A stretch of 64,000 nucleotides of DNA from contig JABZGZ010000001.1 in NCBI GenBank assembly GCA_015259105.1, forward strand, positions 20,670-84,669, given 5' to 3'. Below are positions 272 to 8,916 of the stretch, piece by piece. Every line of letters begins with the position of its first letter. Position 1 is the first letter of the stretch. Both the position numbers and the translations under genes were made by a program. The notes under the pieces were generated by a model. That model saw nothing but the letters and a program-made list of their open reading frames with translations, had not been told where the DNA came from and did no database searches. This DNA comes from Atopobium sp. GTDB lineage: Bacteria; Actinomycetota; Coriobacteriia; Coriobacteriales; Atopobiaceae.

Positions 272-2368
272 ATGGCTAAGACTAAGTACAATCTTAAAGA
301 CCTCCGCAACATCGGCATCATGGCTCACATCGATGCTGGTAAGACCACCACTACGGAGCGTATTCTTTACTACACCGGTAAGACCCACAAGATTGGTGAG
401 GTCCACGACGGTGCAGCAACCATGGACTGGATGGTTCAGGAGCAGGAGCGCGGCGTAACCATTACTTCCGCAGCTACCACTTGCTTCTGGAAAGACCACG
501 TCATCCAGATCATCGACACCCCAGGTCACGTTGACTTTACCGCTGAGGTTGAGCGTTCTCTTCGTGTTCTGGACGGCGCAGTTGCAGTCTTCGACGCAGT
601 TGCAGGCGTTCAGCCACAGTCCGAGACCGTTTGGCGTCAGGCAACCAAGTACGGCGTACCTCGTATTGCATTCATCAACAAGTTTGACCGCGTAGGCGCA
701 GACTTCTTCCGTGCAATCCAGACCATGCGTGACCGCCTTGGCGCAAACGCAATTGCAGCTCAGGTCCCAATGGGCGCTGAGTCCAACTTCTGGGGTCTTA
801 TCGACCTTGTCACCAACACTGCATGGGACTTCAAAGAGGATGCTAAGGGCATGATTTACCCTGAGCCACTCGACGAGATTCCTGCAGAGTTTGTAGAGAT
901 TGCAGCTGAGAAGCGTGAAGAGCTTCTTGAGGCAGCTTCTGACTTCTCTGAGGACGTCATGATGGCTGTTCTCGAGGGTGAAGAGGTTGACGTTGAGACC
1001 CTTAAGGGTGCTCTTCGTGCTGGCGTTCTTGCTGGTCAGATTAACCCTGTCTTTGTTGGCTCTGCTTACAAGAACAAGGGTATCCAGGAGCTTCTGGACG
1101 CAGTCATCGACTTCCTTCCAAGCCCACTGGACGTTCCAGAGATTGATGGCGTCACTCCTAAGGGTGACGAGGCTGTCCGTCACGCAGACGTTAAGGAGCC
1201 ATTCTCCGCTCTTGCATTCAAGATCATGACTGACCCTTATGTTGGTAAGCTTACCTACATTCGTGTTTACTCTGGTCAGGCAGAGGCAGGTTCTTACGTC
1301 TACAACTCCGTCAAGGACAACCGTGAGCGCTTCGGCCGCATCCTTGAGATGAACGCAAACGACCGTGTTGACCGTGACGAGTGCTCCGCAGGCGACATCG
1401 TTGCATGCGTTGGTCTGAAGAACACCACTACTGGTGACACCCTTTGTGATGAGAAGAACCCAATCATCCTTGAGTCCATCAGCTTCGCAGATCCTGTTAT
1501 CGACGTTGCTGTTGAGCCTAAGACCAAGGCTGAGCAGGAGAAGATGTCCATCGGCCTTGCTAAGCTGGCTGAAGAGGACCCAACCTTCCAGGTTCACACT
1601 GATCACGAGACCGGCCAGACCATCATTGCTGGTATGGGCGAGCTTCACCTTGAGATTATTGTTGACCGTCTCCGTCGTGAGTTTAAGGTTGACTGCAACG
1701 TTGGTAAGCCACAGGTTGCTTACCGTGAGACTGCTGGTAAGGCAGTAAGCCACGCTGAGGGCAAGTTTGTCCGTCAGTCCGGTGGTAAGGGTCAGTATGG
1801 CCACGCAGTCATCGACCTTGAGCCACAGGAAGAGGGCAAGGGTTACGAGTTTGTCAACGCTATCGTCGGTGGTGTTATTCCTAAGGAGTACATCCCATCT
1901 ATCGATAAGGGCATTCGTGAGGCTCTTGAGAACGGCGTCATTGCTGGTTACCCAGTAGTCGACATCAAGGTTACCCTTGTTGACGGTTCTTACCACGAGG
2001 TCGACTCTTCTGAGGCAGCATTTAAGATTGCTGGTTCTATGGCAATTAAGGATGCTCTTAAGAAGTCCAACCCTGTCCTTCTCGAGCCAGTTGAGTCTGT
2101 TGAGGTTGAGACACCTGAGCAGTACATGGGCGACGTTATGGGCAACCTTTCTTCCCGTCGTGGCAAGATTGAGGGCATGGACGATCGTATGGACGCCAAG
2201 GTCATCCGCGCTAAGGTGCCTCTTGGTGAGATGTTCGGTTACGCAACCGACCTTCGTTCCCAGACCCAGGGCCGTGCGAGCTACACCATGCAGTTCGATT
2301 CTTACGAGCCCGTTCCTAACGCTGTACGCGAAGAGATTGTCGCCAAAAACGGCGGCTCTGCATCCTAA
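272..2368 (+). CDS. fusA: Elongation factor G
   Basis: 698-aa ORF with the G-domain motifs [12 protein letters not shown] and DTPGHVDF; it follows rpsG. Confidence 0.97.
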
Positions 2369-2411
2369 GTAAACGACCACGAGCTCTAGCTCATTTATGG
2401 AGGTACCCAAA

Positions 2412-2720
2412 GTGTCAAGCCAGAAGATCAGGATTCGCCTCAAGGGCTATGATCACGAGGTCATTGATCAGTCCGCTAAGCTGATTGTTGACACCGCACA
2501 GAAGACAGGTGCGCGTGTTTCCGGTCCTATCCCTCTGCCAACCGAGCGCAACCTTTACACCGTTATCCGCTCACCACACAAGGATAAGGATTCCCGTGAT
2601 CAGTTTGAGATGCGCACTCACAAGCGTCTCATCGATATTCTCGACCCAAGCGCTTCTACCGTTGATTCGCTTATGCGTCTCGACCTTCCAGCTGGTGTCG
2701 ATATCGAGATCAAGCTCTAA
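2412..2720 (+). CDS. rpsJ: 30S ribosomal protein S10
   Basis: Translation [14 protein letters not shown]... matches the S10 N-terminus. The GTG start lies 8 nt after a GGAGG ribosome-binding site; the upstream ATG at 2397 would add a non-conserved extension. Confidence 0.92.
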
Positions 2721-2746
2721 GCATACGGCTTAATCCAACTTGCAAA

Positions 2747-2779
2747 CCCTCCTGCGCATCTCCGCGCGGGAGGGTTTTT
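2747..2779 (+). terminator. Rho-independent terminator after rpsJ
   Basis: 11-bp GC-rich stem (CCCTCCTGCGC / GCGCGGGAGGG, one G-U pair) with a 6-nt loop, followed by TTTTT. Confidence 0.6.
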
Positions 2780-2794
2780 GCATAGGCGGGCTTT

Positions 2795-2839
2795 CCGCTT
2801 GCGCCGAACCCGCTTGCGCCTAACCAGCTTGCGCCTGAT
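2795..2839. repeat. Tandem repeat, 3 x 15 bp (CCGCTTGCGCCNAAC)
   Basis: Three contiguous units: ccgcttgcgccgaac, ccgcttgcgcctaac and cagcttgcgcctgat. Confidence 0.75.
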
Positions 2840-2935
2840 TTTCTCACCATGTCTGAACGATTTGCCGGAAAAGTGCGCCATGTCTGAGCTATTTGCCTGA
2901 TTTTCTCATCAAGTCTGAGTAAATTTGCTCAGACA
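2836..2935. repeat. Tandem array of three ~31-bp units ending in a 22-bp palindrome
   Basis: The units share the pattern ca(t/a)gtctga...atttgc(c) and start at 2836, 2868 and 2898. The first and third also begin with ctgattttctca. The array ends in the perfect palindrome gtctgag-taaatttg-ctcagac (2914-2935). Confidence 0.6.
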
Positions 2936-2998
2936 TGATGAACTTTTCAGGCTGGCTCATGCAGGAGCGCGTTGCTTTACAGAGTAAAGGGCATGTTT

Positions 2999-3011
2999 AG
3001 CGAGAAACCCG
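2999..3011 (-). repeat. Copy of the dispersed motif in minus orientation (cgggtttctcgct)
   Basis: The reverse complement of agcgagaaacccg is cgggtttctcgct. With its flanks it matches 17 of 19 positions against the copy at 3672, in inverted orientation. Confidence 0.55.
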
Positions 3012-3054
3012 TAGAATAGGGAAGCGAATACTTTTACAGTGCACAGGAGAAGAG

Positions 3055-3591
3055 ATGAACCAAAGCTCGCAGAACATAAGTGGTCAGCAGAATGCAGGTA
3101 GCCAGCTAAACGAAGTCCGCTCGGAAAACGCTCACGTAACAAAGATCCTTTTTGTCTGTCACGGAAATATCTGCAGGTCAACTATGGCGCAATATGTCAT
3201 GCAAGACCTTGTCGAGAAAAACGGTCTGGCAGAATCGTTCTTCATTGACTCAGCCGCAACATCCACAGAAGAGATCGGCAATCCTGTGGACCCTCGCACG
3301 CGTAGAAAACTGCAGCAAGAGGGGATTCATTGCGGCAATCATCGTGCCAGGCAGATGACTCGCGCAGATTACGAGGAGTTTGATTACCTCATTGGTATGG
3401 ATCACAACAACCTGCGCAACATGATGCGTATGCTCAAGGATGATCCGCTTGGAAAGGTTTCGTTGCTTCTTGACTGGACAGAGAAGCCTCGCGACATTGC
3501 GGATCCGTGGTATTCGGGTAATTTTGACCTGACGTACGAGGATGTTACAGAAGGCTGCGAAGCGTTGCTCAAGAAAATTTTAGCCAGATAG
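3055..3591 (+). CDS. Low-molecular-weight protein-tyrosine phosphatase
   Basis: Carries the P-loop CHGNICRS (CX5R-S) and a downstream DPWY motif. Has an AGGAGA ribosome-binding site before the ATG and a ~35-aa Q/S-rich N-terminal extension. The family assignment is from established knowledge of low-molecular-weight phosphatases and ArsC-type reductases. Confidence 0.85.
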   Translation: MNQSSQNISGQQNAGSQLNEVRSENAHVTKILFVCHGNICRSTMAQYVMQDLVEKNGLAESFFIDSAATSTEEIGNPVDPRTRRKLQQEGIHCGNHRARQMTRADYEEFDYLIGMDHNNLRNMMRMLKDDPLGKVSLLLDWTEKPRDIADPWYSGNFDLTYEDVTEGCEALLKKILAR

Positions 3592-3671
3592 CCTTCACCG
3601 CAATTTTCCCGGTAACTAGTTCCGGCAAATCATTCCGACAAATTTTTCAGAAAAATTTTGCAAAATTCTTC

Positions 3672-3684
3672 GGGTTTCTCGCCA
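3672..3684 (+). repeat. Dispersed motif GGGTTTCTCGCCA, copy 1
   Basis: Exact 13-mer. Its partner GGCGAGAAG lies at 3724-3732. Confidence 0.7.
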
Positions 3685-3949
3685 ATGGATACGCCCGGGT
3701 CAGCGGTTTGACCTCGCAAAATAGGCGAGAAGAAAGATCTCGCAGCTAGAAGGTATCAAACGGTCTTCACAAAGCGTTCATCTTTTAGAGATTTTAGGCT
3801 TGTTTCTTGTCAAAAATGAGTGTAAAGTAGACGGGCTGCTCAAACAGGACAATTATGTCTAAAGGCAGTATGTACAGGACGTGGTCCGCTGGGGAAGAGT
3901 ACCCGATGTGCTCTCAAGGTCCCATGACCACCGAAGGTTAGGAAAGAGC

Positions 3950-4570
3950 ATGGTTAATACCATCCTCGGCCGCAAGCTGGGCATGACCCAGGTATGGGAC
4001 GAGAACGACAACGTCGTTCCTGTTACCGTCGTTCTTGCTGGCCCCTGCACCGTTTCACAGGTAAAGACTGTTGAGACGGACGGCTACAATGCCGTACAGA
4101 TTGGCTTCGGCGACATCTCCGAGAAGCATGTCAACAAGCCAATGGCTGGTCACTTCAAGGCACAGGGCGTCGAGCCAATGCGTTACCTCCGTGAGGTCCG
4201 CGTTGAGGATGCTTCTGAGCACAAGACCGGCGATGTTGTCACAGTTGCTGACTTCTCCGAGGTCACCGCTGTTGACGTAACAGGCACTTCTAAGGGTAAG
4301 GGTTTCCAGGGTACCGTTAAGCGCTGGAACTTCTCTCGCGGTCCAATGACTCACGGTTCTCGTAACCAGCGTCGTCCAGGTTCCATTGGTCAGTGCGCAT
4401 ACCCTGCACGCGTTCGTAAGGGCCTTCACATGTATGGTCACATGGGCGCAGAGCGCGTTACGGTCAAGAACCTTAAGCTTGTCCGCGTTGATGCTGAGCA
4501 GAACCTCATGCTTATCAAGGGTGCTGTTCCTGGCGGCAAGAATGCCCTCGTCCAGGTCCGCATGGCCTAA
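3950..4570 (+). CDS. rplC: 50S ribosomal protein L3
   Basis: Begins MVNTILGRKLGMTQVWDEN, the canonical L3 start, after an AGGAAAGAG ribosome-binding site. Confidence 0.93.
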   Translation: MVNTILGRKLGMTQVWDENDNVVPVTVVLAGPCTVSQVKTVETDGYNAVQIGFGDISEKHVNKPMAGHFKAQGVEPMRYLREVRVEDASEHKTGDVVTVADFSEVTAVDVTGTSKGKGFQGTVKRWNFSRGPMTHGSRNQRRPGSIGQCAYPARVRKGLHMYGHMGAERVTVKNLKLVRVDAEQNLMLIKGAVPGGKNALVQVRMA

Positions 4571-4609: not shown

Positions 4610-5236
4610 ATGTCCAAGTATGAGATTAAGAACGTAGAGGGAAAGAAGGTCGGCGACGCCGAGCTCTCCTCTGACGTCTATGGCATTGAGCCAAACATCC
4701 CTGTTGTGCACCAGGTTGTAGTCTGCCAGGACGCATCCGCACGTCAGGGTACCCACTCTACAAAGAACCGTCACGAGGTATCCGGCGGTGGCGTTAAGCC
4801 TTACCGTCAGAAGGGTACTGGTCGTGCTCGCCAGGGTTCTATTCGTGCTGGTCAGTGGACTGGTGGTGGCGTCATCTTTGGACCTACCCCTCGTTCACAC
4901 GCACGTCGTATTAACAACAAGATGGTCAAGCTTGCTATGAGGTCCGTCCTCTCCGGCAAGGTTGCAGACTCCGAGCTTGTCCTCGTTGACTCTCTTGAGT
5001 TTGCTCAACCTTCCACTAAGCAGGCAAAGGCTGCACTTCAGAACCTCGGTATTGAGGGTAAGCGCGTTACCGTCATCGTCCCAGACGACGACGTCAACAC
5101 CTACCTCTCTTTCCGTAACCTTCCTAAGGTTTCGGTCTTCGGTGTTTCTGAGGTTACTACTCGTTTCCTGATCGACAACGGCGCACTTGTTATGTCCGCT
5201 GATGTTGCTAAGCAGCTTGGGGAGGTGCTCGCATAA
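4610..5236 (+). CDS. rplD: 50S ribosomal protein L4
   Basis: 208-aa ORF in the expected position with an AAGGAGA ribosome-binding site and L4-like sequence (GTGRARQGS). Confidence 0.93.
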   Translation: MSKYEIKNVEGKKVGDAELSSDVYGIEPNIPVVHQVVVCQDASARQGTHSTKNRHEVSGGGVKPYRQKGTGRARQGSIRAGQWTGGGVIFGPTPRSHARRINNKMVKLAMRSVLSGKVADSELVLVDSLEFAQPSTKQAKAALQNLGIEGKRVTVIVPDDDVNTYLSFRNLPKVSVFGVSEVTTRFLIDNGALVMSADVAKQLGEVLA

Positions 5237-5535: not shown

Positions 5536-5673
5536 GGTTTTTCTCCCGTGCCTCTTTTGAGGTACGGGTTCGTATGCCGCGCATAGTAGATACGCGCGGT
5601 ACCGTGGTAATCCGGTGTTAGCTCGACTTTCCCTTAAGCGGGCTAGCCAACGGAGAAGAAAGGGATACTGTTT

Positions 5674-8806: not shown

Positions 8807-8916
8807 TTAGCACCTAGGAAACAGCTTTTAGCTCAACCTAGTTTTGTATCTATCATTATTTCTCATGTGCGCAAATACGCGCACCTCTGAGAAATTAGGT
8901 TCCGGAGGAACGTCAC

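Follow-up and report, generated by a model that had tools for sequence, protein, structure and literature searches.

A likely old split of the S10 operon in Coriobacteriales, with a candidate leader RNA upstream of rplC and a tyrosine phosphatase gene in the gap

The adjacency of rpsJ and rplC is among the most conserved gene adjacencies in bacteria. In a 64,000-nt stretch of an Atopobium sp. genome (contig JABZGZ010000001.1; hereafter the window, to which positions refer unless a locus is named), these two genes, identified by matches to PF00338 and PF00297, are separated by 1,229 nt between the end of rpsJ at 2720 and the start of rplC at 3950. The 1.2-kb gap reported in the initial annotation was thus measured exactly. 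That annotation had read the gap as the insertion of a motif-bounded, possibly mobile cassette with a gene for a low-molecular-weight protein tyrosine phosphatase (LMW-PTP, or PTP). We consider it likely that the gap instead stems from a split of the S10 operon that is old and order-wide, and that it combines a permissive slot, a fixed LMW-PTP gene, and a leader that controls rplC. The operon of Coriobacteriales would be divided into two transcription units. In the upstream unit, rpsJ would be the tail of rpsL-rpsG-fusA-rpsJ and would end at an intrinsic terminator. In the downstream unit, rplC and the genes that follow would have a promoter of their own and a structured 5′ leader, which would probably confer autogenous control by a ribosomal protein (r-protein). 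The slot would be the stretch from the terminator to the rplC control region, in which genes are gained, lost, and exchanged by lineage. In the Atopobium/Lancefieldella-like genus of the window, this slot would hold the LMW-PTP gene, under purifying selection and with its own conserved upstream region, and the tandem arrays in it would be fast-evolving filler or operator-like repeats. The sequences themselves show the layout, its distribution, the covariation of the leader, and selection on the PTP gene, and from these we infer the use of the promoter, the ligand and mode of action of the leader, the direction of gene transfer, and any read-through from the PTP gene into rplC.

The rpsJ-rplC junction was compared in about 50 Coriobacteriia loci from a one-genome-per-species scan with the L3 protein, which returned 80 loci and also took in Streptomyces and other phyla. 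An identical L3 was encoded by eight species-level metagenome-assembled genomes (MAGs; seven uncultured Atopobium sp. and one uncultured Atopobiaceae bacterium). L3 identity was 82–90% in Olsenella, Thermophilibacter, Tractidigestivibacter, and other Atopobiaceae, 74–78% in Collinsella, and 56–58% in two deep Coriobacteriia MAGs. The distance between the two genes was 29–34 nt in Streptomyces and relatives and in one Firmicutes MAG, 111–112 nt in the two deep Coriobacteriia MAGs, and 134 nt in a contig titled Peptococcaceae. It was 222–5,408 nt in Atopobiaceae and 1,185–3,589 nt in Collinsella, where in other cases rpsJ lay outside the upstream DNA examined (up to 6 kb). The genes in the spacer also varied: it holds a His_Phos_1 phosphatase and often a HAD hydrolase as well in Olsenella and Thermophilibacter, a cation-efflux pump and His_Phos_1 in many Collinsella, and a zinc-ribbon protein in Tractidigestivibacter. 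Four loci (L021 and L031–L033) have no gene there, and LMW-PTP occurs in the window's genus only. Of 20 Coriobacteriales loci that were folded, most have a GC-rich hairpin 3′ of rpsJ, and ~13 also have a T-run there; the hairpin sequences differ. In the minimal layout, that of L032, the terminator, a promoter-like element, and the leader follow each other directly within 222 nt. Because the terminator-spacer-promoter-leader layout occurs with different cargo or with none, the PTP insertion is not the cause of the operon break. The identical PTP insert was not present in all genera. That other genera have different genes at this junction nevertheless points to a permissive site of long standing and not to a recent insertion.

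His_Phos_1 genes (PF00300, ~200 aa) were seen beside the rplC control region in nine loci (L019, L020, L022, L034, L038, L044, L045, L047, and L059). This slot gene occurs in both Atopobiaceae and Collinsella, the L019 and L045 proteins being 49% identical. Judged from these sequences, His_Phos_1 may be the ancestral occupant of the slot that was replaced by LMW-PTP in the window's genus. A tblastn search found no His_Phos_1 homologue in the 64 kb, a result that covers the window only and is uninformative for the whole genome.

On the plus strand of the window, the gene order is fusA (272–2368), rpsJ, the spacer, rplC, rplD, rplW, rplB, and the rest of the cluster. Two starts can be assigned to rpsJ, ATG at 2397 and GTG at 2412, which lie 28 nt and 43 nt from fusA, respectively; the GTG start (102 aa) is the one chosen by gene callers on other contigs. 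It was also observed that neither a tuf gene nor a terminator lies between fusA and rpsJ (272–2720). The tuf gene has evidently been relocated elsewhere, and the str unit, here rpsL-rpsG-fusA-rpsJ, appears to end with rpsJ. A rho-independent terminator had been placed at 2747–2779, and its presence was borne out with slightly wider borders. Its 14-nt arms (2744–2757 and 2764–2777) are 93% complementary and are followed by TTTTT at 2778–2782. The fold has a predicted energy of −30.9 kcal/mol (z = −4.95), a stability reached by none of 200 shuffles, and its sequence is 91–100% identical across the genus. By sequence criteria, this element is a GC-rich stem-loop with a U-tract directly after it, 3′ of the stop codon, as in rho-independent terminators. 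No other plus-strand intrinsic terminator was found after 2782, including the interval between the PTP gene and rplC. The earlier proposal that rpsJ is separated transcriptionally from rplC is supported: compared with the canonical S10 operon, the locus has extra DNA and a predicted terminator that would uncouple the two genes. The phosphatase insertion, however, did not cause the uncoupling.

Directly upstream of rplC lies a candidate r-protein leader RNA, for which the covariance model R1 was built. The core of this leader (3868–3949, ~85 nt) lies beside the rplC ribosome-binding site, with the Shine-Dalgarno sequence at 3940–3946, 8 nt past helix P1. Helix P1 pairs 3881–3886 with 3926–3931 (GUGGUC/GACCAC). 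Helix P2 is short, with GG at 3892–3893 paired to CC at 3921–3922 (UGGGG/UCCCA in the full-length fold), and P3 is an apical hairpin (3897–3902/3908–3913) whose length varies among loci. A stem in the 5′ domain (GCUGC/GCAGC; GCUGC...GCAGU in the window) was weakly supported. When 85 sources were searched, R1 gave one match per Coriobacteriia locus, always just 5′ of rplC and with 30–99 bits, but no match in the Streptomyces, Firmicutes, or Gastranaerophilales loci. A search of the window with the filters off gave no second copy. The leader is also present in the unsplit 111-nt rpsJ-rplC spacer of the two deep Coriobacteriia.

The proposed helices covary. Standard pairs were formed in 98.3% of the alignment cells compared with 81.5% in shuffles, and the covariation score was 0.423 compared with 0.112, with none of 500 shuffles reaching 0.423. 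When the partners were slid by 1–3 columns, this score fell to 0.03–0.08. Compensatory changes were found in all six P3 pairs, and in P1 a U-A pair is replaced by C-G in the deep lineages. An independent MAFFT/RNAalifold run yielded the same helices. Single-sequence folding was unremarkable (z between −0.03 and −1.65), so the case for the leader structure is made by covariation and not by stability. A search of Rfam 15 with the region at E ≤ 10 gave no r-protein leader (r-leader), nor did searches with the whole window at the gathering score or with the loci of four other genera at E ≤ 0.5. The matches obtained were miRNA and sRNA noise and a chance match to Mu-gpT-DE at 23.5 bits. In its structure and position, a covarying RNA directly 5′ of an r-protein gene and beside its ribosome-binding site, the element conforms to an r-leader. 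Because of its covariation, its constraint, and the lack of a match in Rfam or in the leader surveys cited below, we read it as a candidate new r-protein leader, which would represent a new structural class with no described Rfam family. Precedent suggests L4 as the candidate ligand, and proximity suggests L3.

Two other readings of this region were rejected. A 28-aa open reading frame (ORF; 3855–3941) was discarded as a leader peptide, as its frame is not conserved in other genera, and a resemblance to domain I seen by eye was dropped, as the alignment score was under the shuffle mean. Separately, a weak, simplified form of the leader motif (26 bits, E ~1e-4) was noted directly 5′ of rplN at positions 5104–5177 of L063, a deep Coriobacteriia MAG. 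The hairpin in the rpsQ-rplN spacer of the window (8807–8916) is different from this motif.

Another conserved structured element was observed in the rplW-rplB spacer of the window (5536–5673) and at the same place in L011–L063, in all Coriobacteriia loci checked. This spacer measures 138–182 nt in Coriobacteriia, compared with 26–54 nt in the Streptomyces and Firmicutes loci. The element starts with a hairpin, CCGCGC-(AUGGAUAC loop)-GCGCGG, which is followed by UACCGUGGUAAUCCGGUGUC, a variable, covarying stem, and GGCCAACGGA. Compensatory changes were found in 7 of its 15 predicted pairs, and it had no match in Rfam. From these sequence features, the element is a candidate leader for L2 (rplB).

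The DNA between the slot and the leader is also under strong constraint. When ~270 nt upstream of rplC were aligned for 21 loci, they formed a strongly conserved non-coding block. Between species of the genus, 3668–3949 is 98–99% identical, compared with 86–90% for the PTP coding sequences of the same species (dS 0.65–1.27). In the Atopobiaceae loci checked, a TTGTGA-like and a TAnAnT hexamer are kept at a constant spacing of 17 nt, while the letters of the spacer vary; in Collinsella, the −10-like hexamer is kept and the −35 is not clear. It is for this cross-genus conservation only that the putative rplC promoter was called. With no terminator 3′ of the PTP gene, read-through from this gene into the rplC control region would be possible. 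A further observation in this region concerns the GGATAC box GGATACGCSCGG, often followed by N4-GYGG, which precedes three r-protein units and is conserved from Atopobiaceae to Collinsella. In the window, it stands at the beginning of the conserved rplC control region (3687–3698) and recurs inside the rplW-rplB spacer (5588–5599). The third site, at 2144–2154 of L001 and at the equivalent position of 12 other loci, lies ~12 nt 5′ of the −35 TTGACA of a clear rpsL promoter. Given these positions, the GGATACGCCCGG/GGATACGCSCGG box may serve r-protein operons as a transcription-factor or UP-like site.

The phosphatase gene, previously called at 3055–3591, was confirmed with its motifs intact. Its product of 178 aa scores 120.8 bits against PF01451 (cut-off 23.2), over positions 1–144 of the 144 in the profile. 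The CX5R(S) P-loop (VCHGNICRST) and the Asp-Pro acid loop (DIADPWYSGNF) are both invariant in the ten genus orthologues translated. The isoleucine in this P-loop occupies the position that is reported in the YwlE literature to separate phosphotyrosine from phosphoarginine phosphatases. The N-terminus is a genus-specific, Q/N/S-rich low-complexity extension of ~30 aa. Among solved structures, 35 LMW-PTP sequences matched at E < 1e-10, the closest being 2gi4, YfkJ, and ACP1. Matches to the Wzb and Etp equivalogs (NF007520 and NF008486) reached 43.8 bits vs 243 and 32.8 bits vs 247, and the neighbouring genes encode r-proteins, which places the enzyme outside the capsule type.

This gene behaves as a settled resident of the chromosome. 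Across the ten orthologues, the median ratio of nonsynonymous to synonymous substitution rates (dN/dS) is ~0.095, with dS of 0.3–1.27, which indicates purifying selection. Its GC content of 48.8% is close to that of the window (49%), and the GC content at third codon positions (GC3, 0.56) is like that of its neighbours. The 58 nt before its start codon (2997–3054) are 79–100% identical across the genus and include the left copy of the inverted motif described below, a −10-like hexamer TAGAAT, and the GGAG ribosome-binding site, while the DNA just upstream is not conserved. The exact protein is encoded on many metagenome contigs. Among the matches listed (24 contigs), it was found in the order rpsL-rpsG-fusA-rpsJ-PTP-rplC in 10 of 10 places, from 10 different samples. 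The gene is carried by nine GTDB representatives of the genus; the contig of L012 stops before rpsJ, and the other eight species representatives, which span both flanks, have the same neighbours, as does L091 with an 83%-identical orthologue. Because of the fixed site, the purifying selection, and the native composition, we regard the gene as an ancient acquisition and not as an active cassette.

Outside the genus cluster (≥82% identity), the next proteins are 61–74% identical and have no N-terminal extension. The nearest named ones are Clostridial (69–72%; Mediterraneibacter, Lachnoclostridium, Faecalicatena, and Ruminococcus) and are encoded in unrelated contexts. The best matches in plasmid and phage collections are ~60% identical and gave no tie to a known mobile element. 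From these comparisons, the gene is probably of foreign origin and was probably acquired once, in the ancestor of the genus, from Clostridia. As for an association with mobile elements, one of the Clostridial relatives stands beside Tn916-type xis/int genes; the exact protein of the window was seen only in the r-protein context.

The repeat arrays mentioned in the initial annotation are present, as tandem units of 15 nt and 31 nt (Table 1). The 31-nt unit forms 2.8 direct copies (2833–2919) and an inverted fourth copy (2922–2952), and units 3 and 4 fold into a long hairpin (z = −4.49). The array region is hypervariable, with 30–78% identity and 141–186 gapped positions between species. A search of the 64-kb window with an nhmmer profile of the 31-nt unit returned nothing further except a weak partial match at 3627–3650. 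It was further observed, by comparison of 2783–2996 with L001–L007, that contigs of the same species differ by 19–60 gapped positions, with 15- and 28-nt units gained or lost. This polymorphism resembles that of variable-number tandem repeats and could be usable as a strain marker.

Table 1. Features of the rpsJ-rplC region of the window
Feature	Position	Strand	Basis
rpsJ (S10)	2397..2720	+	PF00338, E = 2e-39; gene order
Predicted intrinsic terminator, ends the rpsJ transcript	2744..2782	+	arms, T-run, fold, conservation
Tandem array, 15-nt unit CCGCTTGCGCCGAAC	2795..2835	+	Tandem Repeats Finder (TRF): 2.7 copies, 92% matches
31-nt unit, three direct copies and one inverted copy	2833..2952	.	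repeat search, TRF, fold
Left motif copy, 13-mer GGGTTTCTCGC(T)A	2997..3017	-	inverted-repeat search; block conservation
LMW-PTP gene	3055..3591	+	PF01451, E = 7e-35; GGAG ribosome-binding site 3046-3049
Partial inverted copy of the 31-nt unit, 3′ of the PTP gene	3620..3654	-	repeat comparison
Right motif copy	3665..3685	+	exact 13-mer 3672-3684, 81 nt past the PTP stop
GGATACGCCCGG box	3687..3698	+	kept upstream of rplC across Coriobacteriales
Putative rplC-operon promoter	3800..3828	+	-35 TTGTTT 3800-3805, 17-nt spacer, -10 TAAAGT 3823-3828
Candidate r-protein leader RNA	3835..3949	+	covariance model R1, covariation, no Rfam match
rplC (L3), first gene of the rplC-rplD-rplW-rplB... unit	3950..4570	+	PF00297

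The inverted motif copies that flank the PTP gene had been reported to match at 17 of 19 positions. This match falls inside a longer one, in which 2997–3017 and 3665–3685 agree at 19 of 21 positions, and in shuffled sequence, zero matches as good as this pair are expected. A second inverted pair around the gene, overlooked earlier, also matches at 19 of 21 positions (2850–2870/3620–3640). The two pairs follow each other in the order A, B, gene, A′, B′ and are therefore not nested. The left motif copy, ~40 nt 5′ of the PTP start codon, overlaps the TAGAAT hexamer (3012–3017) and, judged by this position, is probably part of the PTP promoter or operator. The right motif copy forms the start of the ultra-conserved rplC control region, and its TTCTCGCC pairs with GGCGAGAA at 3721–3731.

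The core of this motif is a 13-mer, GGGTTTCTCGCCA, that is dispersed in the window. Six exact copies occur in the 64 kb, every one on the plus strand (at 3672, 21040, 31117, 34902, 36976, and 51108), and the left motif copy is represented by a minus-strand site with one mismatch at 2998. With up to two mismatches, 24 copies were counted compared with 1.5 expected, and an 11-mer core with up to one mismatch gave 14 matches compared with 0.9 expected. Four of the exact copies lie 0–90 nt past the stop codon of a plus-strand gene, with one forming a hairpin between convergent genes; the other two lie inside a coding sequence and at the 3′ end of a minus-strand ORF. Since copies mostly lie just after stop codons, the position of the right copy is typical of the 13-mer. 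The left copy alone is reversed in strand. No longer unit common to the copies was found, the 13-mer was not present in the loci of other genera examined, and the similarity that flanks the right copy beyond the 13-mer is not kept between species. Because the core is a dispersed genomic 13-mer, the random-sequence null exaggerates the significance of the pair. The best explanation of the two inverted copies, as far as the sequences go, is that they are instances of a dispersed genus-specific 13-mer and not transposon ends. In two loci of other species (L106 and L097), the 13-mer was also seen inside tandem units of ~41 nt upstream of an apparent PTP gene. A metagenome scan with the 14-mer GGGTTTCTCGCCAG gave mainly chance matches (soil and other habitats) and few usable human-associated contigs.

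Several observations weigh against an old split with a leader-controlled rplC and a fixed PTP gene. A scan of 2300–4100 with the sigma-70 consensus returned no promoter, the putative rplC promoter being below threshold. As no terminator follows the PTP gene, some transcripts might be common to it and rplC, and transcription might actually start further upstream. Conservation equal to that of the leader is also seen in the 160 nt that separate the GGATAC box from the promoter, and the proposed split does not account for it. The alignment behind the pair counts of the leader had been fitted to the covariance model. Local alignment of four leaders with the 23S rRNA of E. coli gave scores under the shuffle mean, so no mimicry was found at the level of sequence. 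The Clostridial origin of the PTP gene was read just from the names on the top matches. Finally, the left and right copies of the 13-mer coincide exactly with the limits of the conserved PTP module, as a cassette model would predict.

Under that model, 2997–3685 would be a mobile or mobilizable PTP cassette with inverted ends of ~21 nt that was inserted into an intact S10 operon. Besides the placement of the 19/21 pair, which coincides with the limits of the block that is conserved along with the PTP gene, it would accommodate the Clostridial relatives, including the one that adjoins xis/int genes, and a repeat core that is multi-copy in the genome, like the ends of miniature inverted-repeat transposable elements (MITEs). 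We nevertheless consider such a cassette very unlikely, and a motif-bounded insertion into the operon was not upheld: the motif is the dispersed 13-mer, and the operon break, which other genera have without the PTP gene, is older than this gene. No transposase or integrase was found in the r-protein surroundings, where ~6 kb on each side encode r-proteins, EF-G, HypA, an acetyltransferase, and similar proteins. The bases outside the arms differ (GCATGT and TGGATA), which leaves no target-site duplication. The module was seen in a single copy, and the site was occupied in every species sampled for it (L091, the lineage of the window itself, and nine GTDB representatives, of which one lacks the rpsJ side). 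A dS of up to 1.27 with dN/dS of 0.09 indicates long residence, in line with the native composition. Moreover, the other copies of the 13-mer are single and unpaired around genes, with no longer unit in common, and species differ in the flank by which the right arm is extended.

The recurrence of phosphatases raises another explanation, in which the slot has been selected as a phosphatase expression site. An LMW-PTP, His_Phos_1, or HAD enzyme, co-oriented with rplC and possibly read through into it, would then act on the translation machinery. The gene 5′ of the rplC control region is indeed a His_Phos_1 gene in Olsenella, Thermophilibacter, and many Collinsella and the LMW-PTP gene here, always on the rplC strand; HAD hydrolases stand beside the phosphatase in L019 and L022, and the PTP gene and rplC are not separated by a terminator. 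Against this, the slot is empty in L021 and L031–L033 and elsewhere holds the zinc-ribbon protein, large proteins without Pfam domains, or the cation-efflux pump. His_Phos_1 enzymes are mostly metabolic, with only sub-threshold NCBIfam matches to cobC, gpm, and SixA types here. We consider this explanation unlikely. A broader version, quite unlikely in our view, would have genes captured via GGGTTTCTCGCCA, acting as a recombination or 3′-end signal, into a selected expression slot. Phosphatases of three folds (LMW-PTP, His_Phos_1, and HAD) would then have entered the slot independently, and co-transcription with the leader-controlled rplC operon would couple an enzyme that acts on r-proteins or translation factors to ribosome synthesis. 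An undescribed class-wide system of r-protein control would then consist of the GGATACGCCCGG box, the structure upstream of rplB, and the rplC leader. The probability that the arrangement was produced artificially by MAG assembly or binning is negligible. The window does match only MAG or metagenome records, but the layout was the same in every place listed for the exact protein, and the eight species-level MAGs that cover both flanks come from different studies and have intact neighbours.

Taken as an order-wide break, the split would mean that a core operon was rewired without loss, with rpsJ joining the str unit and rplC gaining its own control region. The break exposes covarying RNAs before rplC and rplB, neither of which has an Rfam family. 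Both RNAs are candidate r-protein regulators in Collinsella, Olsenella, and Atopobium/Lancefieldella-like taxa of the human gut and mouth. The main interest of the locus lies in the undescribed covarying RNA upstream of rplC and its promoter elements and not in the phosphatase, which should be annotated as a stable chromosomal gene of the genus rather than as a mobile-element marker.

Compared with known enzymes, the PTP of the window belongs to the same fold family as B. subtilis YfkJ, Campylobacter Cj1258 (2gi4), and human ACP1 (E = 1e-28 to 1e-31) and shares with them the CX5R(S) P-loop and the DP(W/Y) acid loop. It is unlike known LMW-PTPs in its ~30-aa extension and in its location between rpsJ and rplC instead of a capsule/BY-kinase (bacterial tyrosine kinase) or stress locus. 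The module resembles MITEs, insertion sequence (IS)-bounded cassettes, and integron cassettes in that a single gene is enclosed by imperfect inverted flanks with a multi-copy core. It differs from them in having no target-site duplication, transposase, integrase, or attC-like structure, in that its copy number and presence are not polymorphic, and in that the repeat is just 13 nt long, with no longer unit shared. The 13-mer itself is comparable to DNA uptake sequences, Chi and KOPS sites, and repetitive extragenic palindromic (REP) elements, being an over-represented, lineage-specific oligomer that is strand-biased, often located after genes, and sometimes part of an inverted-pair hairpin. Its density of just ~1 per 10 kb sets it apart from these elements, and Chi and KOPS sites are shorter than 13 nt.

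For the leader, the nearest precedent in position is the L4 r-leader candidate of Archaeoglobi, a computationally predicted covarying motif directly 5′ of rplC-rplD-rplW-rplB that was proposed to bind L4 (Eckert & Weinberg 2020, PMC7247131). This motif is archaeal and was not detected in the window. Among the entries considered from the leader table of the same paper, it is the sole rplC entry, and the sole Coriobacteria motif is the L31 leader before rpmE. The title of PMC3616713, which summarizes the background on the S10 leader, describes most r-protein regulatory RNAs of E. coli as narrowly distributed to Gammaproteobacteria. The E. coli S10 leader, which acts by L4-mediated attenuation and translational repression, lies upstream of rpsJ and has five hairpins and an L4/NusA-dependent terminator. 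The leader of the window differs in that it lies upstream of rplC, with rpsJ in a separate transcription unit, and in that it consists of one irregular helix with an apical hairpin and the weakly supported 5′ stem. Both are structured 5′ leaders that precede the rplC-rplD-rplW-rplB... block and end by the ribosome-binding site, and both presumably serve the same purpose, namely, to match r-protein synthesis to the supply of rRNA.

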